A program made the position numbers and the translations under genes. The notes beneath the pieces are model-generated. The model was not told the origin of the DNA. It ran no database searches and worked only from the letters and a program-made list of their open reading frames with translations. This document shows positions 2,169-62,954 of a stretch of DNA of 64,000 nucleotides, one piece after another. This DNA comes from an uncultured Candidatus Binatia bacterium. GTDB lineage: Bacteria; Desulfobacterota; Binatia; UBA9968; JAJDTQ01. The stretch spans positions 1,952,001 to 2,016,000 of the forward strand of contig OZ244070.1 in the NCBI GenBank assembly GCA_965215605.1, given 5' to 3'. Position 1 is the stretch's first letter, and each line of letters opens with the position of its first letter.

Positions 2169-2878
2169 GTCACAAGTGGCTCGTCGTGCGCCTTGAGGCG
2201 CCGCTGATTGCCTTCGGCGGCGTCGCCGTGGACCAGGAGGGTCCCACACGAGATTTTCCAGCGGCTTCGATGCTCACCGGCCTTGCGGCCAACGCCTTCG
2301 GACTGCATTGGTCCGACCGCGCCGCGCACCAAGCCTTGCAGGACCGGCTGATCTTCGCCGCGCGGCGTGAACGTGAGCCGCGTGCGTCGGGCGTCGTCAC
2401 GGACGTGCAGAACGTACAGCTTAACAAGGCGGACAAGGGCTGGACGACTTTCGGTGTACCGGAGGGACGTGACGGGGCAAACCATCGCGCCCCGCATCGT
2501 CGTACCCGGCACTACCTGGCAGACCAGGCGGTGCGGGTCGTCCTGCGCTTCCACCCGGCGGAGCCCCACCCGACCCTGGAAGCGTTGGCCGAGGCGCTCG
2601 ACCGTCCGGCTCGCCCGCTCTTTATCGGACGCAAACCATGCCTTCCCTCGTGCCGTCTAGTGGACGGATGGGTCGATGGGGACACGGCCCATGAGGCTCT
2701 ATGCGCAGTTCCGGGCTTGGGGACTTTCCGGGCCTTGTGGCCCGCGCGCGAGGGGCCGGAGACCGGCGACGAGGTAGAGCGCGTCATCGATCTCGCCGAC
2801 ATGCGGAACTGGCGGACGGGGCTGCACGGGGGATCGCGGCAGGTCGTGGAAGGACGTGTGAAGGGAGCGGATTCATGA
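2165..2878 (+). CDS. cas5: Type I-E Cas5
   Basis: 'LVVRLEAPLIAFGG', 'RHYLAD', 'PARPLFIGRKPCLPS'; ATGA-coupled to cas7. Confidence 0.93.
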   Translation: MSHKWLVVRLEAPLIAFGGVAVDQEGPTRDFPAASMLTGLAANAFGLHWSDRAAHQALQDRLIFAARREREPRASGVVTDVQNVQLNKADKGWTTFGVPEGRDGANHRAPHRRTRHYLADQAVRVVLRFHPAEPHPTLEALAEALDRPARPLFIGRKPCLPSCRLVDGWVDGDTAHEALCAVPGLGTFRALWPAREGPETGDEVERVIDLADMRNWRTGLHGGSRQVVEGRVKGADS

Positions 2879-3660
2879 AACCTCTGTTCCTGATCCGTAT
2901 GCCCGTAGCCATGGACAAGCTGGCGCTCTGTGCGGGAGAGCGCGGTTGGCTGCGGCATCGTGACCGCGTGGCGGGTTTCGATGAAGGTCGCGCCCTTCAT
3001 CACCTGCTGGATGAAACGTTCAGCCCGGGGGCGCTGCGTCCGTTTCGCTTGCTGGTGGCCGGTCGCCAAACCGTGGGAAGCCTCTACGGTTATTGTGTGA
3101 GCGACGTTGACAGCCTGCGCGAAGACAGTCGTATCCACGCTCCTCCCGAGCATCTGAGCGTTCTGAGGCTCGAACGCCTGGAGGGCAAACCGATGCCGAG
3201 CGCATGGACGGAAGGGTGGCGGCTTGGTTTCGATGTGCGGGCGAGGCCCGTTCGAAGGCTGAAGAACGACCTCGTGGACGGTCAGACGGCGTTCCACAAG
3301 GGGGCGGAAGTCGACGCCTTTCGGGTGGAAGCATTGCGCCGATATCCGGACAACCCGGAAGGCATGGAACAGCATGGCCAAACGAGAGAAGGTGTCTATC
3401 TCGACTGGCTTGCGGACCGGCTGGCACCGGCGGCAGAACTCGACCGCGATGCGACGCGACTGGTCCGTTTCCAGCGGGTTCGGGTCTCGCGCGGCAGCGG
3501 GGGACCCGAAGGGCCGGACGCAACCTTCCATGGCGCGTTAACAGTCAAGGACCCCGAAAGCTTCGCGACGTTGCTTGCCAAGGGCGTCGGGCGGCATCGA
3601 GCCTATGGTTACGGCATGCTTCTCCTTCGCCCGGCTTCGAAGCCCGCACCGAGGCGATGA
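2875..3660 (+). CDS. cas6e: Type I-E Cas6e/Cse3 crRNA endoribonuclease
   Basis: C-terminal G-rich loop 'KGVGRHRAYGYGMLLL'; operon position. Confidence 0.92.
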   Translation: MKPLFLIRMPVAMDKLALCAGERGWLRHRDRVAGFDEGRALHHLLDETFSPGALRPFRLLVAGRQTVGSLYGYCVSDVDSLREDSRIHAPPEHLSVLRLERLEGKPMPSAWTEGWRLGFDVRARPVRRLKNDLVDGQTAFHKGAEVDAFRVEALRRYPDNPEGMEQHGQTREGVYLDWLADRLAPAAELDRDATRLVRFQRVRVSRGSGGPEGPDATFHGALTVKDPESFATLLAKGVGRHRAYGYGMLLLRPASKPAPRR

Positions 3661-4544
3661 TGCTCAAGGGTCGGCTCGGTCTCGACAGCGCGAGGGTCCC
3701 CCACGGTGATCGCGCCGGGCTCCTCTACCTGGCGCGGGGTGCGTTGACCGCTCGGGACGGGACGCTGGCATTCCTCCAGGGCGAGGCAACCAACGCGGAC
3801 GCGTTGTCGCCCGGAGATTATGCCATCCCGCTCCAAGGGATATCCATGATACTCCTGGGTCCCGGCTCCACCGTGAGCCACGACGCCTTGCGACTCCTCG
3901 CGCGTGCCCGCACGGCACTGGCTGCGATAGGCGAAGACGGAGTCCGGATGTACACGGCCCCGCCTCTGATTCCGGATCGTTCGGGCCTTGCCCGGACCCA
4001 GGCCCGCCTATGGGCGGATGACAAGAAGCGACTGGACATCGCGCGACGCATGTACGCGTGGAGGTTGGGCGAAGTGCTGCCGCATCGCGATTTCGACGTG
4101 CTTCGCGGGATTGAAGGCGCGCGCATGAAGCAGTCTTATCGTCTCCTCGCCCAGCAGATCGGGGTCGAATGGAAGGGTCGGCATTATGACCGTGCCCGCC
4201 CTGACGCTGCCGACCTCCCCAATCAAGCCCTGAATCATGCCTCGAGCGCCGTCGAGGCCGCTGCGGCGATCGCCGTGGCTTCGACGGGTACGGTCCCGCA
4301 ACTCGGCTTCATACACGAAGACCCGGGCCAGTCTTTCGTCCTCGACATTGCCGATCTTTACCGGGACAACGTAACCATCCCGTGCGCCTTTCGGGCGGCC
4401 AAGCGCGTCTCTGAGCGACCCTTTGAAAACATCGAACGTACGACCCGCCGCATGACCGGCGAAACTTTGGCGCGCGAGAGAATCATCCCGGCGATGATCG
4501 ATCGAATCAAGTCGGTGTTCGAGCAGGCCGACTCGAAAGCATGA
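3657..4544 (+). CDS. cas1: Type I-E Cas1
   Basis: 'LLGPGSTVSHDAL', 'LRGIEGARMK', 'PQLGFIH...SFVLDIADLY'; start at ATG 3657 or 3660. Confidence 0.95.
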   Translation: MMLKGRLGLDSARVPHGDRAGLLYLARGALTARDGTLAFLQGEATNADALSPGDYAIPLQGISMILLGPGSTVSHDALRLLARARTALAAIGEDGVRMYTAPPLIPDRSGLARTQARLWADDKKRLDIARRMYAWRLGEVLPHRDFDVLRGIEGARMKQSYRLLAQQIGVEWKGRHYDRARPDAADLPNQALNHASSAVEAAAAIAVASTGTVPQLGFIHEDPGQSFVLDIADLYRDNVTIPCAFRAAKRVSERPFENIERTTRRMTGETLARERIIPAMIDRIKSVFEQADSKA

Positions 4545-4554
4545 GAGGCCGAAA

Positions 4555-4848
4555 ATGCCGATGACTATCGTCGTGACACGCGACGTTGAGGCCCGTTATC
4601 GCGGGTTTCTCACGTCAGTCATGCTGGAGGTCGCCCCCGGTGTGTATGTTGCCCCTGACCTGTCGGCGGGCGTACGCCAACGTGTCTGGGACGTTGTCGA
4701 GGCCTGGTGGTGGTCTCTTGGCCGCGGGACGATCGTAATGGTCTGGCGTGACGTGGCCGCCTCAGGACACCTGCGGATCGAGACTCTCGGAGAGCCGCCT
4801 AAAGAGATTGTCGATGCCGACGGCGTTCTACTCTTGAAGCGAAATTGA
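4555..4848 (+). CDS. cas2: Type I-E Cas2 (stand-alone, no DnaQ fusion)
   Basis: 'RGFLTSVMLEVAPGVYV', 'IVDADGVLL'; 97 aa. Confidence 0.93.
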   Translation: MPMTIVVTRDVEARYRGFLTSVMLEVAPGVYVAPDLSAGVRQRVWDVVEAWWWSLGRGTIVMVWRDVAASGHLRIETLGEPPKEIVDADGVLLLKRN

Positions 4849-4909
4849 GGGGCGATCTTCGTTCCCTTGTTCTTTGAAAACTCGTAATATCAACGGGTTA
4901 GGTACAAGG
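4849..4909 (+). promoter_or_regulatory. CRISPR leader with IHF site
   Basis: AT-rich 61 bp between cas2 and repeat 1; TATCAACGGGTTA (4888-4900) matches the IHF consensus WATCAANNNNTTR exactly, 9 nt before the first repeat. Confidence 0.8.
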
Positions 4910-5660
4910 GGTTCCCCCGCATGCGCGGGGATAGACCCAACGGCCTCGCGGCCTGGGCTTACGCCTGTCAGGTTCCCCCGCATGCGCGGGGATAGACCCG
5001 AGTGATGCCAGTGGGCATCCCTGACGTCATTGGTTCCCCCGCATGCGCGGGGATAGACCCCTCGAGGCTCAAACATGGAGCGAGATTATCGCGGTTCCCC
5101 CGCATGCGCGGGGATAGACCCCCACCATTCTTGGCGGCCGCTTGGGTATTCGAGGTTCCCCCGCATGCGCGGGGATAGACCTCTACGCCGTCTCAACGTG
5201 CCAGCTTCGATAGTGGTTCCCCCGCATGCGCGGGGATAGACCCCCCTAGAGCCCAGCTTCGAGGCTACGCCAAACGGTTCCCCCGCATGCGCGGGGATAG
5301 ACCCCAGTCTCGCATTTCGGTATCCCCCATGCGACCGGTTCCCCCGCATGCGCGGGGATAGACCCCCGACGTGGCGCCCCAGGGCCTCGGACGCCTTGGT
5401 TCCCCCGCATGCGCGGGGATAGACCCCCAGCCACCGCCGGCGTGAATCTGGTCCGGGGGGTTCCCCCGCATGCGCGGGGATAGACCCCGGGAAAGGAAAC
5501 GCCATGACAACACCTGCCCGGTTCCCCCGCATGCGCGGGGATAGACCCTACCCGGGTGATTGAGGGGGTGGTGGGCAAGCGGTTCCCCCGCATGCGCGGG
5601 GATAGACCCTCTGACACTGTGGACTTTTGGCGGGAGCTAGAGGTTCCCCCGCATGCGCGG
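4910..5660 (+). CRISPR. Type I-E CRISPR array, leader-proximal part: 12 full repeats, 5' part of repeat 13, 12 spacers
   Basis: Repeat GGTTCCCCCGCATGCGCGGGGATAGACC(C), 29 bp, with 32-bp spacers and an exact 61-bp period from 4910 to 5642. Confidence 0.98.
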
Positions 5661-5780
5661 TGTTGGTGGCAACTGTAAATTTCCCATTTATGGCAATCGA
5701 AAACTGCACACATTGATTGCTGGCGTGAGTGCTCGGGTCCAGGCTGTTGGCAAGACCAACAGGAACGGAGCGGAGCACAG

Positions 5781-6803
5781 ATGCACGGATGGGAGACGAG
5801 GATGCTGCTTAGGCACTATCTGGAACGGGGTGTAACGAAGACGGAGCTGTCGCGGCGGTTCGGGGTGAGTCGCCGGACGATCCACGAGTGGATCGAGACA
5901 GGACAGTTGGACCGGGATCTGTCGGGAGGCGGGACGCGATACAGGGCGAGGCCGCCGGTGTGTCACAAGCTGGATCCGTACAAGGGGATCATCGAGGCGC
6001 GACTGGAGGAGTATCCGCGGTTGTCGGCGAAGCGGCTGTACGACGAGGTACGAGGGGCAGGCTACACGGGCGGGTACGTCCGTGTGAGGGAGTACGTTCG
6101 GGCGGTGCGGCCAAGGGAGCCGGCGGAGGCGGTGGTGCGGTTCGAGACGCCGGCGGGACGGCAGGGGCAGGTGGACTTTGCGACGTTCACGCTTCCCTGG
6201 GGGCGGCGGCATGCTTTGGTGATGGTTCTGAGCCACTCCCGGCTGTTGTGGCTGCGGTTTTACCGGCGGCAGACGATGGCAGTGCTGATCGAAGGGCTGG
6301 AGAGCGCCTTCGAGTGCTTCGGCGGGGTGCCGCAGGAGCTCTTGTTCGACCAGATGCGGACGGTGGTGCTGTCGGACGGCCGCGCGGGCGGGGGCGAGTT
6401 GGTGTTGAACGCGGACTTCTTGCGGTTCGCCGCGCACTGGGGGTTCCGGCCTCGGGCATGCCGGCCGTACCGAGCCCAAACCAAGGGCAAGGTGGAGCGG
6501 CCGATCCGCTACATCCGCAACAACTTCTTCTACGGCCGGGAGTTCCTGAACGACGAGGACCTGAACGAGCAGGCGCGCTTGTGGCTTGAGGGAACCGCGA
6601 ACCGGCGCTGGCACGGCACCACCAGGGAGCGCCCGGTGGACCGCTTCGAGCGCGACGAGCAGCAGGCGCTGCTGCCGTTGGCGAGTTGCCCGTATCGGCG
6701 CCTTGGTATGCACAGGCTTCCACAGCAAGCCCGGCGCCCCCTGCCCGTCACCGTAGACGTCGAGCGGCGCTCGCTCAGGGTCTACGCGGAGGCGGTGTCA
6801 TGA
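5781..6803 (+). CDS. istA: IS21 transposase IstA
   Basis: N-terminal HTH, 'RFETPAGRQGQVDF', 'FGGVPQELLFDQM', 'CRPYRAQTKGKVER'. Confidence 0.95.
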   Translation: MHGWETRMLLRHYLERGVTKTELSRRFGVSRRTIHEWIETGQLDRDLSGGGTRYRARPPVCHKLDPYKGIIEARLEEYPRLSAKRLYDEVRGAGYTGGYVRVREYVRAVRPREPAEAVVRFETPAGRQGQVDFATFTLPWGRRHALVMVLSHSRLLWLRFYRRQTMAVLIEGLESAFECFGGVPQELLFDQMRTVVLSDGRAGGGELVLNADFLRFAAHWGFRPRACRPYRAQTKGKVERPIRYIRNNFFYGREFLNDEDLNEQARLWLEGTANRRWHGTTRERPVDRFERDEQQALLPLASCPYRRLGMHRLPQQARRPLPVTVDVERRSLRVYAEAVS

Positions 6804-7597
6804 GGGCCGAGGCAGGCAACCGGCGCGACCGGCTGCGGGCGATGCTGGCGGATCTGAAGATGCCGGGCGCGCTCGAGGCCGTCGACGACGTCCTGGCCCA
6901 GGCCGACAGCGGGGCGGCCACCGCCAGCGAGGCTATCGAGCAGTTGTTGGACGCCCAGATCGGGTTGCGCAACAACCGCCGCCTCCAGACCGCCATGCGC
7001 TCGTCGCGGCTGCCGGCCGTGAAGACCCTGGCCCAGTTCGACTTCGCCTTCCAGCCCAGCATCAAGCGCGAGCAGATCGAGAGCCTCCACGAACTCGGCT
7101 TCCTGGATCGCCGCGAAAACGTCATTTTTCTCGGGCCGCCCGGGGTCGGCAAGACTCATCTGGCTATCAGCCTAGCCGTCGCCGCCGCCGAATCCGGCCG
7201 CCGCGTCTACTACGGAACCCTGGCCGGACTGATCGAGTCGCTGCTGGAGGCCAAGGCCGCAGGCGAGCTCTCCCGCCGGCTGCGGGTCCTCACCTATCCC
7301 GCCTTGCTCTTGGTGGACGAGATCGGCTACCTGCCGGTTACCCAGGACGGCGCCGTGCTCTTCTTCCAGCTCATCAACGCCAGGCACGAACGCGCCTCCA
7401 CCGTGCTCACCTCCAACAAGGGCTTCGAGGACTGGGGCAGCGTCCTCGGCGACGAGGTCATGGCTGCTGCCCTCATCGACCGGCTCCTCCACCACTGCCA
7501 CATCGTCAACATCCGCGGCAACAGCTACAGGATGCGCGAACACCGCAACCTCATGCGGTCAGCCGACGAGCAGCCTCGCCAGGGAGGCGTCCTGTGA
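6800..7597 (+). CDS. istB: IS21 helper AAA+ ATPase IstB
   Basis: 'GPPGVGKTHLA', 'LLVDEIGY', 'LTSNK', 'DRLLHH', 'GNSYR'; ATGA overlap with istA. Confidence 0.95.
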   Translation: MRAEAGNRRDRLRAMLADLKMPGALEAVDDVLAQADSGAATASEAIEQLLDAQIGLRNNRRLQTAMRSSRLPAVKTLAQFDFAFQPSIKREQIESLHELGFLDRRENVIFLGPPGVGKTHLAISLAVAAAESGRRVYYGTLAGLIESLLEAKAAGELSRRLRVLTYPALLLVDEIGYLPVTQDGAVLFFQLINARHERASTVLTSNKGFEDWGSVLGDEVMAAALIDRLLHHCHIVNIRGNSYRMREHRNLMRSADEQPRQGGVL

Positions 7598-7779
7598 GCG
7601 CCATGTCCTGCCGATCTGCAACCCGTCATGGCCTGGACTCCGCTCGCTCCGCTCCCTCCGTCCAGACCATGACCCATGAACCGAACCAACCGCAGAGCGT
7701 CACTTCTGCACGGACGCTCTTCTCGAAAGTGTGCAGTTTTCGATTGCCAAATGTGTGCAGTTTTCGGTTGCCATTGACA

Positions 7780-8343
7780 CGCGGGGATAGACCCGAGGAT
7801 AGAGCAACGAGGAAACGGGAACGCACGGTTCCCCCGCATGCGCGGGGATAGACCCAGCGGAGACGCCGTGTCGCAAGCGCACGTCGAGGTTCCCCCGCAT
7901 GCGCGGGGATAGACCGCCGTGGGGTGCTTCGGGCCATCCCACGATTGAGGTTCCCCCGCATGCGCGGGGATAGACCCGGAGGCAAACGTTGATGGCGCAG
8001 TATCTACAGGGTTCCCCCGCATGCGCGGGGATAGACCCAGCAGGGCTACGACCTGTTGCAGCGCCCGGACGGTTCCCCCGCATGCGCGGGGATAGACCCG
8101 TGGGATTGAAGCTCACCACCGAGGAAGTGGCGGTTCCCCCGCATGCGCGGGGATAGACCCGGTTAGGTCGGTGTCACGGATGATATCTACGCGGTTCCCC
8201 CGCATGCGCGGGGATAGACCGGGCTCGGCGCCCTTGCCTTCCTGGCGGCCTTGGGTTCCCCCGCATGCGCGGGGATAGACCCGCTGTCACTTACGCTCTC
8301 CAGATCAAGTCGCCGGTTCCCCCGCGCACGCGGGGATAGACCC
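7780..8343 (+). CRISPR. Type I-E CRISPR array, distal part: 3' part of repeat 13, 9 full repeats, 9 spacers
   Basis: Repeats at 7827 to 8315 with 61-bp period; terminal repeat has a variant loop (GCAC instead of ATGC), consistent with the trailer end. Confidence 0.97.
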
Positions 8344-8389
8344 ATATGGGGGACACAATTCATAGATGAAACCGGCGTACGAGGGTGAT

Positions 8390-9034
8390 ATGAGAACACG
8401 ACGACAGACGCGTTCACACGCGAATTTGCGGAAGCTTCATGCACAGCTTGTAGAATGTTCGCGATATCCTGAACGGATTCTCTTTCTGGATGTCGAGACT
8501 ACCGGGTTAAATCCCCACCACCACGAGATCACTGTGATCGGATGGTCGTTCGGCGGCTGCGCAAGGACCATAGTAAGGGGGGCAGATCCAAGCCTGCTCC
8601 GTAGTGACCTTGGATACGCCAAATTCCTGATAACCTTCAATGGCGGTCGCTTCGATACCAAGTTCGTCACGCGGGAACTTCCGGGAATCATGTTGCCGAA
8701 GGTTCATTTCGACCTCATGTATCTTTGTCGGCATGTCGGACTCATAGGTGGCCAAAAGGAAATCGAAAAGACCCTCGGAATAGACTTCCGATGTGAGGCG
8801 TCCGCAATCACCGGCGTCACCGCGGTTGCGCTTTGGCGCAAGTATCTACTGGGCGACCGTGAGGCGCTGCAAAGATTGATCCTGTACAATCGGGTCGACA
8901 TAGCCGCGATGGGTGCCATCCTTGATGAGGTCATTTTTAGAATGAGTGCTCGCTTCGCGTTGCCGATGAACGATGTGCGTTTCAGGGATTGGTCGGCGCC
9001 AGCAGGCTGGCGGGCGTTGCCGGATGTCCCATAG
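8390..9034 (+). CDS. RNase H-like DEDDy 3'-5' exonuclease (YprB/RNase_H_2-like)
   Basis: ExoI 'LFLDVETTG', ExoII 'ITFNGGRFD', ExoIII 'YNRVD'; GAGGGTG before ATG 8390 (alternative start 8366). Confidence 0.8.
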   Translation: MRTRRQTRSHANLRKLHAQLVECSRYPERILFLDVETTGLNPHHHEITVIGWSFGGCARTIVRGADPSLLRSDLGYAKFLITFNGGRFDTKFVTRELPGIMLPKVHFDLMYLCRHVGLIGGQKEIEKTLGIDFRCEASAITGVTAVALWRKYLLGDREALQRLILYNRVDIAAMGAILDEVIFRMSARFALPMNDVRFRDWSAPAGWRALPDVP

Positions 9035-54868: not shown

Positions 54869-54960
54869 GGTACTCCTTCGTTGGTCTGGACGCCCACTCG
54901 TTAGCAAAAGCAATCCGGAATTGCCCTTGTCTCGCTTTTTGTATGGTGTATTATGGGTGT

Positions 54961-55161
54961 ATGGTACGCACTAATATCAACATCGACGACGAGGCTTGTG
55001 CGGAGGTCATGCGCCGCTATCGCCTGAACACCAAGCGTGAAGCCGTGAACTTTGCGCTCCGAGCCCTTGCGGTAGAACCCTTCGGCGTCGACGAGGCTCG
55101 GCGTCTTCGTGGGTCAGGATGGGAGGGCGACCTCGACGACATGCGGACCGGCCGCTCGTGA
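54961..55161 (+). CDS. vapB: VapB-family antitoxin
   Basis: 'RTNINIDD...TKREAVNFALR...GWEGDLD'. Confidence 0.88.
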   Translation: MVRTNINIDDEACAEVMRRYRLNTKREAVNFALRALAVEPFGVDEARRLRGSGWEGDLDDMRTGRS

Positions 55162-55544
55162 TCCTGATCGACACTTCCGCGTGGGTCGAGTTTCTTCGCG
55201 ATACGGGCTCGGCGACGTGTAGTCGCGTCGACGCGGTACTCGATGACGAGATCGCGATCTGCGACGCCATTCGGATGGAGGTGCTCGCCGGAGCGCGCGA
55301 CGAGCGACATCTACAGTCACTCCGGCGTTTGCTTGCGCTTGCCACGGTGTTGCCAACGGAACCTGCCCACTACGACGACGCCGCAAGTCTCTACCGCGCC
55401 TGCCGCCGAAGAGGGGAGACCGTTCGCAAGTTGATCGATTGCCTTATCGGCGCCGTTGCCATCCGCGCCGACGCGCCTGTACTCCACAGCGATGCCGACT
55501 TTGATATCCTGGCTCGCCATACGGAACTGAAAACAGCAACATGA
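55158..55544 (+). CDS. vapC: VapC PIN toxin
   Basis: 'ILIDTSAWVEFLR', 'MEVLAGA', 'DCLIGA', 'LHSDADF'; GTGA overlap with vapB. Confidence 0.9.
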   Translation: MILIDTSAWVEFLRDTGSATCSRVDAVLDDEIAICDAIRMEVLAGARDERHLQSLRRLLALATVLPTEPAHYDDAASLYRACRRRGETVRKLIDCLIGAVAIRADAPVLHSDADFDILARHTELKTAT

Positions 55545-55557
55545 TAGGGACTTGGCA

Positions 55558-57054
55558 TCAGCCGGCCTCCTCGAACGCATACGCCGCTCGATAGATCGTG
55601 ATCTCGTCAAAGAGCCGGCCCACCAGCATCATTCCCACGGGCCGTCCGTCCTTGGTGGCGCCGCAGGGCAGGGAGATGGCCGGGTGGCCGGTGACGTTGA
55701 AGGGGCCGGTGTTGGCCAGCATTTCGCTGGCGCGCCGCGCGCGCTCGGCGGCATCGGCGCCGGCGGCGGGCAGGGGTGTGGCTGCCATGGGCGTGGTGGG
55801 CATGAGCAGCAGGTCGTGATCGGCGAAGACCTCGTCATAGCCCCGGCGGATGGCGCGGCGAAGCTGTTGCGCCTTGACGTAGTAGCGTCCCGGGTGGCGG
55901 CGCCGCACGAAGCCGCCGAACAGGAGCAGGGCCATCACGTTCTCGGGCAGCTCCCGCCAGCGTTGACGCCAAGCGGCGAAAGGCTCGGCAGGGCTTGACG
56001 AACCGAGACCCTCCGCGCCGGGCATGATGCCGCACATGCCCAGTGAGTGGGCCAGGCTCTCGACGTAGATGGGCTGGGCCAACAGCCAAGCCCGTTTGTG
56101 AACGGGCGCCGATACCTCGGCGACATCGAGACCGGCGGCAGCCAGGGCGCCGGCCGCGGCCCGCACGCTCTCGTCCACCTCGGCTTCCGTGTTGCGGTGT
56201 CCGAAGCCTTCCTTTACCACGGCCACTCGCAAGCCCTTGGCGCCGGCCCGGCGCGCGTGGGTGTATCGCACCGGTTGCCAGGAGCCGGGTTGACGCGGGT
56301 CCATGCCGTCGCGTCCGGCCAGGACTTCCAGTAGCAGGGCGTTGGTGTCCACGTCCCGCGTCATGGGGCCGCAGTGGTCCACGGCCGGGTCGAGGCCCAG
56401 GATGCCGGTGTAGGGGACCAGCCCGTGGCTGGGCTTGAGCCCGACGATGCCGCACCAGGCCGCCGGCACCCGGATGGAACCGGCTTGGTCGCAACCCAAG
56501 GCCATGTCCGCGTCGCCGGCCGCTACGGCCGCGGCGCTGCCCGATGACGAGCCGCCCGCGGAATAGCCGGCCTTGTGCGGATGGACGACGGGTCCATTGG
56601 CGCCGCTATGGCTGCCGCCCGAGAGGGACAAATACTCGCAGTTGGTCTTGCCGACGATCTCGGCGCCGGCGCGGAGCGCCCGGGTGACCACGGTGGCGTC
56701 GACGTCGGGTACGTAGCCCTCGACGAACGAGGCGCCGTTCATCGTGGGCAACCCTGCCACGCAGATGGAGTCCTTCACCGCCAGGGTCTTGCCCGCGAGC
56801 CGGCCGCGGTACGCTTCCCGGATGGACGTCTTCACGAACCAGGCGTTGCAGCGGTTCAGGTCCGGCTCCGGACGTTGCCAGGAGCGCCGCCGAGCCGTCG
56901 GCGCCGGTTCCGGTTCCTCGTCCACCGCCGCATAGGCGCGGGAGAGTCCTTCCATCCGCTCCAGATAACCGGCCAGTTCGTCGTCCGACAAATCAATGCC
57001 GAGATCGCCGGCCACGGCCCGCATCTGCTCCAGCGTCGGTCTGATGAAGGTCAC
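55558..57054 (-). CDS. Amidase-signature family enzyme
   Basis: 'AVKD', 'GGSSSGSA', 'DQAGSIRVPA', 'GLKP'. Confidence 0.9.
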   Translation of the reverse strand: MTFIRPTLEQMRAVAGDLGIDLSDDELAGYLERMEGLSRAYAAVDEEPEPAPTARRRSWQRPEPDLNRCNAWFVKTSIREAYRGRLAGKTLAVKDSICVAGLPTMNGASFVEGYVPDVDATVVTRALRAGAEIVGKTNCEYLSLSGGSHSGANGPVVHPHKAGYSAGGSSSGSAAAVAAGDADMALGCDQAGSIRVPAAWCGIVGLKPSHGLVPYTGILGLDPAVDHCGPMTRDVDTNALLLEVLAGRDGMDPRQPGSWQPVRYTHARRAGAKGLRVAVVKEGFGHRNTEAEVDESVRAAAGALAAAGLDVAEVSAPVHKRAWLLAQPIYVESLAHSLGMCGIMPGAEGLGSSSPAEPFAAWRQRWRELPENVMALLLFGGFVRRRHPGRYYVKAQQLRRAIRRGYDEVFADHDLLLMPTTPMAATPLPAAGADAAERARRASEMLANTGPFNVTGHPAISLPCGATKDGRPVGMMLVGRLFDEITIYRAAYAFEEAG

Positions 57055-57158
57055 CGCTTTGACACCACCCGCGTGCCCACGTCAGCCTCCCCGCGCAGGT
57101 TCCGCACGTACAACTCGTCGATGAAGCCGGAGTCGTCCGGATCCCAAACTTCGAAGGA

Positions 57159-57701
57159 TCAGCTCAGTAGCCGGGTGTTTGCCGTCAACATAGTCAGTCC
57201 TTCTCCGGCAAAGTCCCCGTCGTCCGTCACAAGCTTCATGCCTGTCCTCCTGCATGCTTCCCCGATAACCTGATCATTGAAATCGGTTCCGCCTTTCCCA
57301 TACTCGGTGGTCAACGCCTCCATGTCCAATGCCGTGAAGCCACTTTCCATGGGTATACATTGCTTAAGAATACGCCGAGTGTCGGCGGCGATGCCGGAAG
57401 CGCCCGACTTGAAAGCGTCGCTGTTGCGGAACGTCTTGAAGTTGACAACGGAACCTTGGTGGAATTTATGATAGTGGAATCTGGCCCAGCGGTTGATGAT
57501 CTCGGACAAGACAACCACGTCGATATGGATGCGGCTTCCCGCCTCCAGGATGCGCCGAAATGCGGAGGAGTAGTAGTCTTTTCTAACTCCAGCGTGGGGC
57601 CTCTGCGGCCCATAAATGTAAAGCCAGACATTGGCGTCAAAAAACAGGTCATCCTCCGACGTAAAACGGTAGTCTTCCACGTGCAGCACCTCACCTGCCA
57701 T
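57159..57701 (-). CDS. PIN-domain nuclease (about 180 aa)
   Basis: 'FFDANVWLY', 'VLSEIINR', 'DFNDQVI', 'LVTDDGDF': full acidic PIN set. Confidence 0.82.
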   Translation of the reverse strand: MAGEVLHVEDYRFTSEDDLFFDANVWLYIYGPQRPHAGVRKDYYSSAFRRILEAGSRIHIDVVVLSEIINRWARFHYHKFHQGSVVNFKTFRNSDAFKSGASGIAADTRRILKQCIPMESGFTALDMEALTTEYGKGGTDFNDQVIGEACRRTGMKLVTDDGDFAGEGLTMLTANTRLLS

Positions 57702-58062
57702 TGCCGCCGTCCTCGTCCTCCAAAGTCTCACGAGCCGCTTGCTTGAATCTCTCAGGGTCGCTGAAGTACAGTTTCGCGGTGTCGACGACACGCTTCAAGA
57801 GGGCTAGATCTTCGGCCTCCATGTCTTCGACCCTGAGCAATTCACGAATCTGGTTTTCCCCGAACTCACCGTACAACTGCCCGATAGCCGTGTTGAGGAA
57901 GGCTGACGTCAGCGTCGAGACGTTGAGAAACGACAGCACGACGTGGCGATTTCGCCTGAGCGTGGCTTCTAGCCGGTTGTAGACTTTCTGTCCGTCACCC
58001 GAGGCGACGCACAAGGGGCTACCGACCACACCGAATACGGATATCGCAACACTATTGTTCAT
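57691..58062 (-). CDS. STAS-like (DUF4325-type) protein
   Basis: 'DGQKVY', 'VVLSFLNVSTLTSAFLNTAIGQLY'. Confidence 0.78.
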   Translation of the reverse strand: MNNSVAISVFGVVGSPLCVASGDGQKVYNRLEATLRRNRHVVLSFLNVSTLTSAFLNTAIGQLYGEFGENQIRELLRVEDMEAEDLALLKRVVDTAKLYFSDPERFKQAARETLEDEDGGNGR

Positions 58063-58071
58063 CGGAGGACC

Positions 58072-58944
58072 TCAAAAAATATCGTCTGTCTCGGGTTCGG
58101 AGGAAAGGCTGTAAGAACTCCGATCCGAGGTATCGATTTCGATACTCACAACGGTGCCGGGGAACGCAGTCCCCAGTTGCCCCTTGTTGTTACGTCCGTC
58201 TTCCCGTCGCCAATAGCCGGCGTCAGACACGATCTGGAGGAAGCCGCCGTTCAGATCTACGAACTCGCGCAGCAATTTCAAACCCAATCCCCCAGGGACA
58301 CCGCCGCGTTTTGTCGTGTTGTTAGCTTGGGTCGCCCATTCGATGGCGTCCTCCGGATTCAAGTCAACTCCGATATAACGGTGTACGTTACTATGTATCC
58401 CTACTCCTAAATCGGCCACACAGAAGTTAAGTTTAGATCGGGTTGGAAAAAGTTGTCCGCAACTGAAGATGCCCAGTTTTGTCCGGGAATGTAGGACGGC
58501 GTTGCTGAATATCTCGAAGATGCTCTCGCAAAACTTCTTTCGGAGGCCGGTGGACATCTCCGGTATTTCCGAGCGCTGGATGAATTCGTCCTCAATGTAA
58601 CGAGCAAAGTAGCGATCATCGTCAGCGTCGAATCGTTTGTAGGAGATCGTCGTCCCCCAGTAATCGGGAATCTTGGTGCGGCCGTAATGACTGAGGAAAC
58701 CGTTTTTCTTGAGGACGCTTTCGATCATTGGGTGGATATGGGTCAAGCGGACTGTGTTCAGATTGTCTTCCATTCCGTACAAGATTGCGCCAAAAGCGGC
58801 GCACATGTCGGCGTCAAGCCAATCCGTCGCACGCATGTCGATCTCGATATCTTCCAGGAAACAGTCCGAGGTCCGGGCATGAAGATCTGCAAGGACCCGA
58901 AATCCAGAGGAACTGTGGTGGATCGCGGACAAAGGGATTCTCAT
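58072..58944 (-). CDS. STAS-like plus GHKL (HATPase) protein, RsbW-like kinase/ATPase
   Basis: N-box 'EIFSNAVLHS', G1 'ADLGVGI', G2 'GGLGL', G3 'PGT'; N-terminal 'IDMRATDWLDAD'. Confidence 0.78.
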   Translation of the reverse strand: MRIPLSAIHHSSSGFRVLADLHARTSDCFLEDIEIDMRATDWLDADMCAAFGAILYGMEDNLNTVRLTHIHPMIESVLKKNGFLSHYGRTKIPDYWGTTISYKRFDADDDRYFARYIEDEFIQRSEIPEMSTGLRKKFCESIFEIFSNAVLHSRTKLGIFSCGQLFPTRSKLNFCVADLGVGIHSNVHRYIGVDLNPEDAIEWATQANNTTKRGGVPGGLGLKLLREFVDLNGGFLQIVSDAGYWRREDGRNNKGQLGTAFPGTVVSIEIDTSDRSSYSLSSEPETDDIF

Positions 58945-58978
58945 GCCTGCATCCGGGCCGTTGTTGACGCGGTCCCGC

Positions 58979-60607
58979 TCACCCCCGCAGCCGCCGGTAA
59001 CGCCGGATCAACGCGTTGGTGGAGCTGTCGTGATCCAGCTCCGGCGCATCCTGGCTTTCGAGCTCCGGAACGATGCGCTGGGCCAGGGCCTTGCCGAGCT
59101 CCACGCCCCACTGGTCGAAGGAGTTGATGCCCCAGATGGAGCCCTGGACGAACACCTTGTGCTCGTAGAGGCCGATGATCTTGCCGAGGGTCTCGGGGGT
59201 CAGCCGCTCCGCCAGGATCGTGTTGGTGGGACGGTTGCCCTCGAAGGTCCGGTGCGGCACCTGGAAGTCCGGCATCCCTTCGGCGGCTGCTTCCACGCCG
59301 GTCTTGCCGAAGGCCAGCGCCTCAGTCTGCGCGAACAGGTTGGCCATCAGCAGGTCGTGGTGGTTCCCCAGGGGATTCAGGGTCCGGCAGAAGCCGATGA
59401 AGTCGCACGGGATGAGCTTCGTGCCCTGGTGGATCAACTGGTAGTAGGCGTGCTGGCCGTTGGTGCCCGGCTGTCCCCAGATGATCGGGCCGGTCTGGTA
59501 GTCCACGGCCTCGCCTTCCAGGGTGACGTGCTTGCCGTTGCTCTCCATGTCGAGTTGCTGGCAGTAGGCGCTCAGGCGCCACAGGTACTGGTCGTAGGGC
59601 AGGATGGAATGGGTCTCGGCGCCGAAGAAGTTGTTGTACCAGATGCCCAGGAGCCCCAGCAGCACCGGCAGGTTCTTCTCGAAGGGGGCAGTGCGGAAGT
59701 GCTCGTCCATGGCGTGGAGTCCGCCCAGCATGGACCGGAAGTTGTCCGGGCCGACCGCGATCATCAGCGACAGGCCGATGGCGGAGTCGTAGGAGTAGCG
59801 TCCCCCCACCCAGTCCCAGAAGCCGAACATGTTGTCGGTGTCGATGCCGAAGCGCCGTACTTCGTCGTGGTTGGTGGACACGGCCACGAAGTGACGGGCC
59901 ACGGCGGTCTCGTCCTTGAGGGCGGCCAGGCACCAGTCCCGCGCCGTGTGGGCGTTCTTCAGGGTCTCCAGGGTGGTGAAGGTCTTGGAGCTGACGATGA
60001 ACAGGGTCTCCGCCGGGTCCAGGCCCTGGGTGGTCTCGGCGAAGTCGGTGGCGTCGACGTTGGAGACGAAGCCCAAATCGAGGGAGCGGTCGCTGTAGTG
60101 GCGGAGGGCCTCGTAGGCCATCACCGGCCCCAGGTCCGAGCCGCCGATGCCGATGTTGACGACGTTGCGGATGCGCTTGCCGGTGTGACCTTTCCATTCA
60201 CCGGAGCGGACGCGGTCGGCGAAGGATGACATCCGGTCCAGCACGGCGTGCACGTCCGGCACCACATCCTCGCCGTCCGCCAGGATGCTCTGGCCGCGCG
60301 GCGCCCGCAGCGCCACGTGCAGCACCGGCCGCCCCTCGGTGACGTTGATCCGCTCGCCGCCGAACATGGCGTCGACGCGTTCCTTGACGCCGGTGGCCCG
60401 CGCCAGCTTCAGCAGCAGGCCCAGGGTCCCGTCGGTGATGCGGTTCTTGGAGTAGTCGAGGTAGAGCCCCGCGCCCTCGACGGCGAGCCGCTCGCCGCGG
60501 CTTGCGTCTTCCGCGAACAGCGCCCGCAGGTGCACGTCCTTGATCTTGTCGTAGTGCGCGGCGAGATCCTGCCACGCCGGCAGCTCGGTCAGGCGATGAG
60601 TGGCGAT
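58979..60607 (-). CDS. pgi: Glucose-6-phosphate isomerase (probable non-canonical ATC start)
   Basis: 'LDYSKN', '[10 protein letters not shown]', 'SSKTFTT', 'DWVGGRYS', '[10 protein letters not shown]', '[10 protein letters not shown]'. Confidence 0.95.
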
Positions 60608-62174: not shown

Positions 62175-62513
62175 CTATGGCTTCGCGGGGCGGGCTTCGT
62201 TGTCGAGCGTGGCAATGCCGGTCAACGTAATCGGAGGACGGTCAGGGAATTCCGCCACAAGGCTTAGCTTGCCACCCATTGCTTCAACGTAGCCGCTGAG
62301 CGTGGATATCAGCAGGTCGCTGCGTTTCTCGATTCGCGACACGTTTTCCTGCTTGATTCCGAGTTCCTTGGCCACGTGCACTTGTGTCTTCTTGCGCGCC
62401 TTACGCAGGGCTTGTAAGGACATTTCCTCTGCGATCAGTATCTTCGCCCGCTCTTCTACTTTCTTCCGGCGTGCCTTCGGCAGCTTCTCAATTCTCTCCG
62501 CGAGGGTCGTCAT
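62175..62513 (-). CDS. XRE-HTH antitoxin (HigA-like)
   Basis: 'LRKARKKTQVHVAKELGIKQENVSRIEKRSDLLISTL..YVEAMGG'. Confidence 0.88.
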   Translation of the reverse strand: MTTLAERIEKLPKARRKKVEERAKILIAEEMSLQALRKARKKTQVHVAKELGIKQENVSRIEKRSDLLISTLSGYVEAMGGKLSLVAEFPDRPPITLTGIATLDNEARPAKP

Positions 62514-62581
62514 AATATAATCTTTCAATATATGGCTGGGTTTAGAGCCCTATTGTCCCAGTGTTCACTACGCCAGTTTTG

Positions 62582-62954
62582 TCATCGCGACCTCCTTCCC
62601 TGCGCTAACCGGTCCAAATGCGCGTCGAACCTCTCGTCAGCCTTCTTGATCAGCGCCCTATAAAAGCGTCTTGCGTTCACGCCCGACCTGCTTGTCACCC
62701 GCCACGAGGACAATCGCTTGCCGCCGCGGATCAAACGCGAAAGCGACTCGCCAAACTCCGTCATCGGCTTGAAAGCGCAACTCCTTCATGTTGGTGTGGC
62801 GTGATCCCTTCAGAGCGTCCACCTGGGGGCGACCCAGCGTCGGCCCAAACGCTTCCAGACGCCTCGCTTGTGCGAGCAGTTCATCCTGTACGGAGTTGGC
62901 CAAGGAATCGAATTCCGGGTCGAATGCAGGATCGAATTCGACTTTCCAAGCCAT
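62582..62954 (-). pseudogene. Frameshifted RelE/HigB (Gp49-like) toxin
   Basis: 'GPTLGRP', 'NMKELR', 'AFDPRRQAIVLVAGDK'; the natural continuation 'SG...FY..LIKKADERF' is shifted by 4 extra nt at 62687-62690. Confidence 0.82.

Follow-up and report, generated by a model that had tools for sequence, protein, structure and literature searches.

The 64,000-nucleotide stretch of DNA analyzed here (hereafter, the window) comes from an uncultured Candidatus Binatia bacterium, and it raises a specific question: what is the compact, AT-rich cluster of three genes that lies between pgi and an amidase gene, and has such a system already been described? An earlier note, made from the sequence alone, interpreted the cluster as a kinase-STAS switch with a PIN RNase as its output and did not recognize it as a characterized system. 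The interpretation is essentially the published vapKSC model (PMC13373217), and the novelty does not stand: the trio is not new, having been named vapKSC in 2026 and partly characterized. We conclude with high confidence that it is an intact member of VapKSC, a three-component kinase-gated toxin-antitoxin and anti-phage system.

Published work on vapKSC

The name vapKSC was introduced in a bioRxiv preprint (February 2026) and in an EMBO J article (June 2026) (Chambers, Rani, Min, Villa, Corbett; PMC13373217), and a literature search found no VapKSC papers other than this preprint and paper from the Corbett laboratory. In that work, the PIN toxin VapC has VapS as its antitoxin, and the authors propose that, upon DNA damage, VapK phosphorylates a conserved serine of VapS and thereby releases VapC (PMC13373217). 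For Escherichia sp. E4736, VapC was toxic and its D28A mutant non-toxic, and VapS neutralized VapC, which C-terminally truncated VapS and VapS S48E failed to do (PMC13373217). The two proteins formed a 2:2 crystal complex (VapS2VapC2, PDB 9z7o), in which the C-terminal region of VapS, required for inhibition, reaches the VapC active site and does not displace its Mg2+ (PMC13373217). The operon gave E. coli ~100-fold (~2-log) protection against one phage, Bas42, which was abolished by VapC D28A, VapS S48A, or VapK F54A (PMC13373217). VapK was insoluble; its kinase activity and activation by ssDNA remained proposals there, and the trigger step was backed by an AlphaFold 3 model plus a single mutant (PMC13373217). 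In total, 289 vapKSC instances were published (PMC13373217).

The coupling of PIN and DUF4325 genes had appeared in 2017 as subfamily "PIN.4" (Matelska et al., NAR; PMC5499597), in a purely bioinformatic listing that mentions no kinase and gives no function. PADLOC-DB v2.0.0 (2023) holds no vapKSC model, and it yielded only a weak match to a GHKL-like piece of one DrmA model; because this release predates the paper, the trio looks uncatalogued to older tools. Likewise, NCBIfam returned nothing for the trio except far-below-cut-off noise (histidine kinases for VapK and aspartate kinases for VapC).

A low-GC islet at a variable chromosomal site

The three genes are tightly packed on the minus strand (Table 1), and the coordinates in the earlier note were exact: vapK and vapS are separated by 9 bp, the vapC start lies over the vapS stop in an 11-bp overlap, and vapK starts 34 bp from the pgi stop codon (58979). 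Besides these three genes, the insertion, bounded on its other side by the amidase start codon (57054), contains nothing but spacers, 104 bp long next to the amidase gene and 34 bp long next to pgi. The AT-richness that had been noted was confirmed, with a GC content of 0.50-0.55 over positions 57200-58800 vs 0.65-0.72 in the flanks. In addition, GC3 was 0.62-0.66 for the trio vs 0.85-0.95 for neighboring genes. A repeat search found no flanking or terminal repeats around the islet.

Table 1. Features of the vapKSC locus, in window coordinates
Feature	Position	Strand	Product	Basis
vapK (gene 1)	58072..58944	-	290 aa	ORF
vapS (gene 2)	57691..58062	-	123 aa	ORF; Pfam DUF4325
vapC (gene 3)	57159..57701	-	180 aa from ATG	ORF; Pfam PIN
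Low-GC insertion, ~1.9 kb	57055..58978	unstranded		GC profile; empty sites in same-genus genomes

Within the genus of the window's organism, the gap between pgi and the amidase gene behaves as a variable hotspot. In two genomes (G014 and G022), the site is empty, and 17 bp separate pgi from the amidase gene. The cassette is full-length in 3 of the 24 other genomes of the genus, G021 retains a deletion scar at the site, and the vapK of G041 has lost 86 codons, including those for the N and G1 boxes, with vapS and vapC intact. This loss of the kinase from an otherwise intact cassette fits the kinase-gated model. We conclude that the cassette in the window arrived by horizontal transfer and forms a stand-alone islet of three genes in a variable pgi-amidase site.

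No recognized defense system was found within ~10 kb of the cassette in the window. Two ordinary type II toxin-antitoxin pairs were all that this stretch yielded. A canonical VapB-VapC pair, separate from the cassette, is located at 54943-55544.

VapS aligns with the antitoxin of the crystallized complex

Pfam assigned VapS to DUF4325 ("STAS-like", E 2.6e-16), which was the only domain found in its 123 residues, with no HTH or wHTH; a helical tail forms its C-terminus. A phmmer search of the PDB matched VapS to 9z7o_A, the Escherichia VapS (E 1.2e-15), with residues 12-116 aligned. The earlier note had pointed to the motif L-T-S-A-F-L-N at the place where anti-anti-sigma factors carry their phosphorylated serine; indeed, S53 within this motif lines up with the serine that is functional in Escherichia VapS (S48, FASPFFN), assuming an 18-residue tag offset in the PDB numbering. 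In 67 of 68 relatives, position 53 is occupied by Ser; the remaining one has Thr, and T52 is invariant. S53 is therefore the predicted phospho-acceptor, judging by this alignment. The tail is conserved as well, e.g., F100 (68/68), P103 (65/68), and F106 (65/68).

VapC is a PIN protein predicted to be bound by VapS

VapC was recognized as a PIN protein by Pfam (E 1.9e-6). Since a single-sequence phmmer search of the PDB with VapC found nothing, we used a profile of 67 VapC relatives, which matched 9z7o_C, the Escherichia VapC, over nearly its full length (E 1.8e-11) and aligned D22 with the catalytic D28. The acidic residues described earlier as intact are conserved among these relatives: all 67 have E67, D140, D143, and D161, and D22 is missing from just one of them. 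The partner encoded upstream is a DUF4325/STAS protein, in agreement with the claim that no ordinary DNA-binding antitoxin accompanies the PIN gene.

Modeling of the STAS-PIN complex, which had been suggested as a check, gave VapC plus VapS a score of 0.83, and the best of three controls scored 0.00. In a benchmark, a score of 0.83 was attained by 116 of 157 solved complexes and by 2 of 215 mismatched pairs. At least 81% of the contacts agreed between runs, and the partner pLDDT was at least 85. The predicted VapS interface comprises residues 50, 52-55 (including S53), and 105-114 of the C-terminal tail. The prediction used alignments made in this analysis and may partly mirror likeness to the solved 9z7o complex. 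Binding of VapC by VapS is thus predicted here, in the sense that the modeled pair resembles a solved complex. Catalytic and regulatory residues are intact across all three open, full-length frames. In public records (e.g., for Deinococcus gobiensis), the three products are named "ATP-binding protein," "STAS-like domain-containing protein," and "PIN domain-containing protein."

VapK combines a STAS-like domain with a GHKL kinase domain

VapK comprises a STAS-like region (~residues 1-85), a linker, and an ATP-binding domain of the GHKL Ser/Thr-kinase type (~residues 130-272). Pfam detected HATPase_c only weakly (E 0.001, under the curated cut-off), and the sole phmmer match in the PDB was a weak GHKL match to an ethylene receptor. 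The GHKL boxes, which the earlier note had called complete, do not vary among the 22 homologues aligned (E144/N148, D178xGxG182, G218-G221, and G263-T264). A Foldseek search with the whole VapK model retrieved GHKL folds exclusively, with 45 matches at E <= 0.001, SpoIIAB (1til_E) among them.

This whole-protein search left the N-terminal domain of VapK unresolved, and the first 128 residues were folded alone. They gave no Foldseek match at E <= 0.001; the 13 best rows were all STAS-domain structures (E 0.019-0.069, probability 0.99-1.0), which upholds the STAS-like N-terminus noted earlier at the fold level. Since a profile-profile comparison of VapK with VapS, made in search of a DUF4325-like STAS domain in the VapK N-terminus, found no similarity, the assignment is made from the fold, and the modeled structure supports the N-terminus being a STAS domain. 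Pfam found no HTH in VapK, and the protein begins directly with the STAS-like fold. Homologues back the 290-aa version of VapK; the existing database entry for the window has 254 aa.

The link of VapK to the published family runs through an intermediate rather than directly to Escherichia VapK: the kinase of the K-S-C trio on plasmid P5 of D. gobiensis I-0 is 34% identical to it over 261 residues (pairwise E 3e-54). VapK W42 is conserved at >=90% in the clade and is also W in the D. gobiensis VapK alignment. W42 may be the counterpart of Escherichia VapK F54, which, like CapK W68, is a conserved aromatic at the putative ssDNA site (PMC13373217).

Several genomes named in the available part of Dataset EV3 (PMC13373217) carry a trio homologous to that in the window: Nitrosomonas nitrosa Nm90 (L024), Zetaproteobacteria CG_4_9_14_3_um_filter_49_83 (L051), the "DeMMO2_3" MAG (L009), and D. 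gobiensis I-0 (L081), all matched by genome name and not by IMG gene id. The VapK of N. nitrosa Nm90 is ~62% identical to that of the window. No "Binat" entry was found in the same part of the dataset. Kinship to the experimentally studied Escherichia proteins is remote, and the window copy belongs to a distant clade.

The gene trio is conserved across phyla

A search with VapK yielded 1368 sequence clusters at E <= 1e-3, and among the best 120 of these, nearly all have 290 aa. There were 197 relatives among species-representative genomes, and the neighborhood counts cover the 80 loci kept from this set. A DUF4325 gene adjoins vapK in all 80 loci and a PIN gene in 78, with both misses at contig ends. 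In line with the suggestion that homologs be examined for a conserved three-gene order, we found K-S-C on one strand in 76 of the 80 loci, S-C-K in 2, and a contig end after vapS in the remaining 2. Adjacency of the DUF4325 and PIN genes is far beyond chance. In no locus (0/80) does vapC occur without vapS, and the 11-bp overlap of vapS and vapC recurs in 44 of 78 related loci. A VapK tree, built with a quick tree method, carries 13 phylum labels, and VapK identity is 56-85% across these 13 phyla.

Among viral sequences, a scan of IMG/VR contigs with the VapK alignment found no relative; it gave 14 pattern matches, none of them confirmed, and by this method the close clade was not seen to be carried by phages. 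A tblastn search of GenBank phages found one UNVERIFIED phage-labeled contig and prophage K-S pairs.

Many relatives are nested within type III restriction-modification operons

Many of the related cassettes are flanked by type III restriction-modification (R-M) genes. A mod gene runs up to the vapK start in 42 of the 80 loci (full-length in 21), and 27 have a res gene beginning downstream of vapC (full-length in 17), most of these no more than ~10 bp from the vapC stop. Full-length mod and res occur together in 12 of the 80 loci, and short remnants of mod and res flank the trio in further loci. R-M-flanked forms occur in both halves of the VapK tree, and 34 of the 80 loci bear no R-M trace whatever.

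The window and its two nearest relatives carry no mod or res trace. No mod or res remnants were found in the window at 1e-3, and all matches in positions 56001-60000 had E > 0.9. The only mod and res matches in the genome of the window are a distant pair, res-like and mod-like, located ~1 Mb away.

The main text of PMC13373217 has no use of the term "type III," the available part of Dataset EV3 has no RM_type_III entry, and literature searches found nothing relevant to the nested R-M arrangement. As far as we checked, both the type III nesting and the variable pgi-amidase hotspot go beyond that paper.

PrrC, an anticodon nuclease, is a latent RNase within the EcoprrI type Ic R-M locus, where it serves as a second line of defense. 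We draw on it only as an analogy for the mod-vapKSC-res layout of the relatives, with no homology implied; PrrC/EcoprrI differs in its proteins, in its R-M type, and in its activation by a phage peptide that acts on the R-M enzyme. Tentatively, we propose that vapKSC in this clade, rather than being a system in its own right, may form the second layer of a five-gene operon, mod-vapK-vapS-vapC-res. DNA breaks and ssDNA left by Res cleavage of incoming DNA, or of the cell's own unmethylated DNA, would be the physiological trigger of VapK, and failed or overwhelmed restriction would hand over to the RNase. The islet in the window might then be a cut-loose derivative that has kept the ssDNA sensor and reports any DNA damage. 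This extension is possible rather than probable.

Proposed mechanism and alternative explanations

We postulate that the cassette works as its published relative does. In a resting cell, the STAS domain of VapS would bind VapC, and the C-terminal helix of VapS, lying by the active site, would silence the toxin; this step was shown for the Escherichia homologue, and homology together with the complex prediction suggests it here. Upon DNA damage or phage infection, VapK would bind ssDNA between its STAS and GHKL domains, as proposed in the paper. Phosphorylated VapS would release VapC, and the freed VapC would cleave RNA, stop growth, and limit phage spread.

The alternative that survives best retains this mechanism and assigns it a main role other than stand-alone phage defense, i.e., a selfish addiction module, a general DNA-damage responder, or, originally in this clade, a back-up built into a type III R-M operon, from which the window copy would be an orphan derivative of doubtful benefit. 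We regard it as unlikely. Such a role would suit the frequency of mod and res flanks in the 80 related loci, the patchy and decaying state of the cassette within the genus (with few full-length copies, the G021 scar, and the broken G041 vapK), and the authors' own description of VapKSC as answering a global stress signal (PMC13373217). However, the Escherichia homologue protects as a three-gene unit without an R-M partner (PMC13373217), the three genes are intact here with their catalytic residues conserved, and the R-M-free loci are numerous (34/80). Moreover, addiction, stress response, and defense are compatible with one another.

It is improbable that the cassette is present and dead in this organism, either unexpressed or being lost. 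A promoter scan recognized no promoter in the 34-bp spacer between pgi and vapK, promoter-like and terminator-like matches across positions 56900-59300 were no more frequent than in shuffled sequence, and the scar of G021 and truncated vapK of G041 lie at the same site. On the other hand, the frames are open and full-length, every conserved catalytic and regulatory residue is retained, and the tight packing behind pgi permits read-through or a promoter in the pgi 3' end. Coordinated expression is also the simpler state because any expression of vapC with a silent vapS would be lethal.

That vapK and vapS form a transcriptional switch of the CapK/CapS type, or an anti-sigma/anti-anti-sigma pair, with the PIN gene a mere neighbor or regulated target, is very improbable: CapK/CapS, the closest characterized relatives of VapK/VapS, do act on transcription and PIN-less kinase-STAS pairs do occur in prophages (Streptococcus phage Javan172, and one table entry for a Francisella prophage), but VapS is without a wHTH and VapK without an N-terminal HTH, no sigma factor gene is present in the operon or among 17 neighboring ORFs, the vapS/vapC overlap is widely kept, VapS matches the crystallized VapC-bound VapS, and the VapS-VapC interface is predicted far above the controls. 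Nearby, Sigma70_r4 gave a single, weak HTH match, to a HigA-like protein (62178-62528).

Comparison with known systems

The VapKSC system of Escherichia E4736 shares with the window the three genes and their order, a VapK with STAS and GHKL domains and no HTH, a VapS made of a STAS domain and short C-terminal helix with a conserved serine (S48; S53 here), and a PIN protein of ~180-200 aa with a conserved first aspartate (D28; D22 here). It differs in that a type III R-M operon surrounds many members of the window's clade.

CapK/CapS is a DNA-damage-activated kinase with a STAS-wHTH repressor, found upstream of CBASS, Bub, Thoeris, and other operons (PMC13373217). As proposed for VapKSC, a STAS-bearing GHKL kinase phosphorylates a conserved helix-2 serine of its STAS partner, with ssDNA as the proposed activator. 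However, CapK carries an additional HTH at its N-terminus and CapS a wHTH at its C-terminus, neither of which is present in VapK/VapS here, and the output of CapK/CapS is transcriptional de-repression, whereas that of VapKSC is the release of a bound nuclease.

A GHKL serine kinase with a STAS substrate is also found in SpoIIAB/SpoIIAA and RsbW/RsbV, and SpoIIAB and SpoIIAA/RsbV were among the fold matches. In those systems, the kinase also sequesters a sigma factor and is countered by the STAS protein, whereas here no sigma factor takes part and the STAS protein sequesters the toxin; VapK, unlike SpoIIAB/RsbW, is fused to a STAS-like sensor domain of its own. Canonical VapBC likewise has a PIN RNase neutralized, through direct binding, by a small protein from an upstream overlapping gene. 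Its antitoxin is the DNA-binding VapB (RHH/AbrB/PHD or similar) instead of DUF4325/STAS, and the toxin is released by antitoxin proteolysis, whereas VapKSC would rely on phosphorylation by a dedicated third component.

Biological significance

Where the window is concerned, the main outcome is a correct annotation of the three genes as a VapKSC toxin-antitoxin and defense module. For the family, our counts reveal a group much larger and wider in its spread than the 289 published instances, and one under strong constraint, as identity is kept across phyla and even the 11-bp overlap is conserved. The succession of decay states at a single place in the chromosome (intact, kinase-less, scar, and empty) gives an evolutionary view of how such a module is gained and lost, and the R-M nesting offers a testable source for the ssDNA signal of VapK.

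A distant member of the VapKSC family beside pgi

Three minus-strand ORFs lie in close succession next to pgi, whose stop codon is 34 bp from the start of gene 1; 9 bp separate genes 1 and 2, and genes 2 and 3 share an 11-bp overlap, so their positions and spacing are as the earlier note gave them. The lower GC it described was also found, at 0.50-0.55 inside the trio and 0.65-0.72 outside, and third-position GC is 0.62-0.66 versus 0.85-0.95 in neighboring genes. A search around this islet revealed no repeats, integrase, promoter, or terminator at its boundaries. The protein collection's entry for gene 1 is a 254-aa version (P0004, 88% coverage); the longer start at 58944 is backed by 290-aa homologs with 100% coverage.

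Features of the cassette, its surroundings, and related loci
Feature	Location	Strand	Details
vapK (gene 1)	58072-58944	-	ORF, 290 aa
vapS (gene 2)	57691-58062	-	ORF, 123 aa
vapC (gene 3)	57159-57701	-	ORF, 180 aa counted from its ATG
Canonical VapB antitoxin and VapC PIN toxin	54943-55544	+	Overlapping pair; 72 aa (Pfam VapB_antitoxin, E 1.4e-14) and 141 aa (PIN, E 2.6e-16)
Gp49-like/HigB-type toxin and HTH_3 protein	62178-62954	-	98 aa (E 5.7e-18) and 117 aa
Full mod-vapK-vapS-vapC-res	L003, L005, L006, L016, L017, L018, L024, L028, L032, L053, L065, L069; ~1700-8500 in each		Relatives
DNA methylases	L102, L104, L105		pgi-amidase cargo, Pfam
GmrSD, SNF2, ParB_N, class-V aminotransferase	L105		pgi-amidase cargo, Pfam
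PAPS reductase, class-V aminotransferase	L102		pgi-amidase cargo, Pfam
NERD-UvrD helicase	L103		pgi-amidase cargo, Pfam
HicB	L104		pgi-amidase cargo, Pfam
M78 peptidase with HTH	L107, L108		pgi-amidase cargo, Pfam

The earlier note did not recognize the trio as a characterized system; it has in fact been named vapKSC (Chambers et al., EMBO J 2026, PMC13373217; bioRxiv preprint February 2026). That paper reports 289 instances, 36% of them ≤10 kb from a PADLOC hit. In Escherichia sp. E4736, VapC is toxic, and D28A abolishes the toxicity; VapS neutralizes VapC, an effect abolished by C-terminal deletion or phosphomimetic S48E; and the VapS-VapC crystal structure is 2:2, with S48 buried within the interface. 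The E4736 operon gives ~2-log protection against phage Bas42, which is lost in VapC D28A, VapS S48A, and VapK F54A. VapK kinase activity and its activation by ssDNA were not demonstrable with the insoluble protein, and this step is based on an AlphaFold 3 model (PMC13373217). The kinase-gated STAS/PIN toxin mechanism put forward in the earlier note therefore agrees with the published model and is no longer new.

Our data place the window cassette in this family as a new, distant member. Gene 1 shares 34% identity (pairwise E 3e-54) with the "ATP-binding protein" of Deinococcus gobiensis I-0 plasmid P5, where the trio is annotated ATP-binding/STAS-like/PIN. Dataset EV3 of the paper includes D. 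gobiensis I-0, Nitrosomonas nitrosa Nm90, Zetaproteobacteria CG_4_9_14_3_um_filter_49_83, and a "DeMMO2_3" MAG; the last three correspond to our loci L024, L051, and L009, whose VapK is 62-66% identical to that of the window.

Three other identities were considered. Features defining a sigma-factor partner switch are absent at the locus, and those of an ordinary VapBC pair are absent from genes 2 and 3. In the CapK/CapS pair, ssDNA activates CapK, an HTH-STAS-GHKL kinase whose phosphorylation target is a serine of CapS, a STAS-wHTH repressor (PMC13373217); the window VapK and VapS lack the defining HTH and wHTH, respectively.

The three proteins

The complete GHKL boxes noted earlier in VapK are invariant in 22/22 aligned homologs. 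Its Pfam HATPase_c match is only sub-threshold (E 0.001), and its AlphaFold2 model (pLDDT 73.9) matches GHKL folds only (45 matches at E≤0.001, including the anti-sigma kinase SpoIIAB). The proposed STAS-like N-terminus held at the level of fold. Folded alone (pLDDT 74.2), residues 1-128 gave no structure match at E≤0.001, and the 13 top-ranked matches were all STAS domains (E 0.019-0.069, probability 0.99-1.0), among them SpoIIAA, RsbV, RsbS, and SulP STAS. Since no match reached E≤0.001 and comparing the family profiles of genes 1 and 2 revealed no similarity, the STAS-like assignment applies to the predicted fold only. Conservation of VapK W42 is at least 90% within the clade, and D. gobiensis VapK also has it; we infer that it may be the equivalent of the ssDNA-site aromatic residue (Escherichia F54, CapK W68).

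VapS carries the Pfam DUF4325 "STAS-like domain" (E 2.6e-16) and matches "Escherichia VapS" in the PDB (9z7o_A, E 1.2e-15). S53 in "LTSAFLN", singled out earlier as the phospho-site position, is paired in the alignment with the "FASPFFN" serine, corresponding to S48 provided that the 9z7o_A chain has an 18-residue tag; of 68 relatives, 67 have Ser at this position and one has Thr. VapC has a Pfam PIN match (E 1.9e-6). Searched against the PDB, its single sequence gave no match, and a profile built from 67 relatives matched "Escherichia VapC" (9z7o_C, E 1.8e-11) along almost the entire sequence. The acidic residues described as intact are indeed so, with E67, D140, D143, and D161 invariant in the 67 relatives and D22 aligned with residue 28 of 9z7o_C, the catalytic D28.

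Modeling of the STAS-PIN complex, which the earlier note had proposed, gave a score of 0.83 (best control, 0.00), a value reached by 116/157 solved complexes and 2/215 mismatched pairs. At least 81% of contacts were shared between runs, with partner pLDDT of at least 85, and the predicted VapS interface comprises residues 50, 52-55, and 105-114, which cover the serine surface and C-terminal tail. Because the prediction used our own alignments and a like complex has already been solved, it shows likeness to that complex rather than binding.

Co-occurrence and spread of the relatives

Gene 1 has 1368 homologs at E≤1e-3 in a large protein collection, and nearly all of the best 120 are exactly 290 aa long and at least 63% identical. 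With one GTDB genome per species, 197 stretches encode a relative, of which the best 80 loci were kept. Among these, tblastn placed a gene 2 homolog beside gene 1 in 80/80 and found gene 3 in 78/80, the contig edge following directly after gene 2 in the other two (L012 and L050). The order 1-2-3 occurs in 76/80, so the co-occurrence on which the earlier note had staked its reading is borne out. In two Thermodesulfobacteriota MAGs (L049 and L064), the order is 2-3-1, with vapS-vapC preceding a same-strand vapK by ~200 bp, and in L033 and L038 the PIN gene is partial. Genes 2 and 3 overlap by the identical 11 bp in 44/78 loci. The 80 loci carry 13 different phylum labels; gene 1 identity nevertheless stays within 56-85%, as would be expected if the trio spread horizontally and is strongly constrained.

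Occasional pseudogenization of vapC or vapK is seen as in-frame stops, hits that are split, or a shortened PIN gene in L062 (vapC), L067 (vapK and vapC), L033, and L038.

Relatives also occur in prophages and on one phage-labeled contig. Streptococcus phage Javan172 (L082, 2860-4138) has a kinase-like (~300 aa) and DUF4325-like (~112 aa) pair with no PIN gene, and a Francisella phage KIRK table (PMC7924643) contains a like pair, also without a PIN gene. Such PIN-less prophage pairs adjoin the integrase and repressor region and may act as CapKS-like regulators or else as orphan antitoxins carried by phages. A complete K-S-C trio (39%, 42%, and 33% identity to the window proteins) lies at 1435-3183 of L114 (MT837343.1, UNVERIFIED Bacteriophage sp.), on a 7-kb contig labeled phage from a fecal metagenome. 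An IMG/VR scan with the close-clade VapK alignment found no relative.

A variable site between pgi and amidase

The cassette's housekeeping neighbors are a pst phosphate transporter, aldo-keto reductase, amidase, pgi, and carboxylase. Nearby, the canonical VapB-VapC pair has GC slightly below its flanks, and a second low-GC islet (0.53-0.57), between the carboxylase and an amidohydrolase gene, is probably an inserted HigBA-like TA pair. PADLOC gave only generic ATPase or HTH matches on the window neighbors.

We searched 27 other same-genus genomes with window DNA 56300-59700 and found that the pgi-amidase gap (57055-58978; L097-L113 in same-genus genomes) is a variable hotspot. Full-length VapK is encoded in 3/24 other genomes, and one more has only a 31-residue fragment. 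G004, G012, and G009 carry the cassette in the same position as the window does; the site is empty in G014 and G022 (17-bp gap), and the gap is 64-198 bp in four others. G021 (L091/L112) bears a deletion scar where only the first ~88 nt of vapK (~31 codons) and the final ~33 nt of vapC are left, joined together. About a dozen genomes hold 3-17 kb of other cargo, in which Pfam (93 ORFs from 15 regions, E≤1e-5) revealed metabolic genes mixed with defense-type genes (Table). In G041 (L092/L110), vapK lacks ~86 codons (VapK residues ~111-196, with the N and G1 boxes) and changes frame; vapS (88% identity) and vapC (73%) are full-length. The G021 scar and the broken G041 vapK thus show the cassette at different points of decay in one and the same site.

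Proposed working of the cassette

By analogy with its homolog, for which this has been shown, VapS would keep VapC inactive. According to the published proposal, VapK would sense ssDNA and then phosphorylate VapS, here at S53; phosphorylated VapS would dissociate, and VapC would cleave RNA and stop growth. Natural variants agree with a logic in which the kinase would be a dispensable trigger and the antitoxin indispensable, because G041 retains vapS and vapC beside its broken vapK and vapC without vapS occurs in 0/80 loci.

Nesting within type III restriction-modification genes

A scan of the flanks of 24 related loci covered 130 ORFs. In six, a ~900-aa ResIII protein begins just 3' of vapC, and in L017 a 699-aa N6_N4 methylase ends immediately ahead of vapK; PADLOC models identify the methylase as MTase_III (E 6e-113) and the ResIII protein as REase_III (E 3e-19). 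Using tblastn, we found mod-like sequence that runs up to the start of vapK in 42/80 loci (21 full-length, 14 remnants, 7 contig-end cuts) and res-like sequence 3' of vapC in 27/80 (17 full-length, 9 partial, 1 cut). Some of the "partial" res genes are in fact interrupted where the locus stops or, as in L036, shifted away by additional genes. Mod and res are both full-length in 12/80, and neither was traced in 34/80. In the 12 fully flanked loci, mod ends at the vapK start, and res starts at most ~10 bp past the vapC stop in most.

A quick tree of VapK, with SH-aLRT supports and rooted at the midpoint purely for display, has fully flanked loci on both sides, 7 in one half and 5 in the other. 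The window clusters with two Binatia-labeled loci without R-M trace (support 96), and these three adjoin a group in which some loci are fully flanked. No mod or res remnant was found in the window, and the only mod-like/res-like match in its genome is a distant pair ~1 Mb away.

An AAA_15/AAA_21 ATPase gene and a ~200-aa ORF follow vapC in L034 (5916-7888) and L036 (5815-7811), lying in L036 between vapC and the displaced res; for this reason, the mod-res gap may collect several defense modules.

The mod-vapKSC-res arrangement is apparently unreported, since it is absent from the paper's main text ("type III," zero occurrences) and Dataset EV3 ("RM_type_III," zero), and literature searches found nothing on vapKSC nested in type III R-M. 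Nm90, where mod and res are both present, is entered in Dataset EV3 with "PDC-S01" only. The gene order suggests that restriction-generated DNA ends could feed the VapK sensor. What merits follow-up is this nesting among the relatives, together with the series of gains and losses seen beside pgi.
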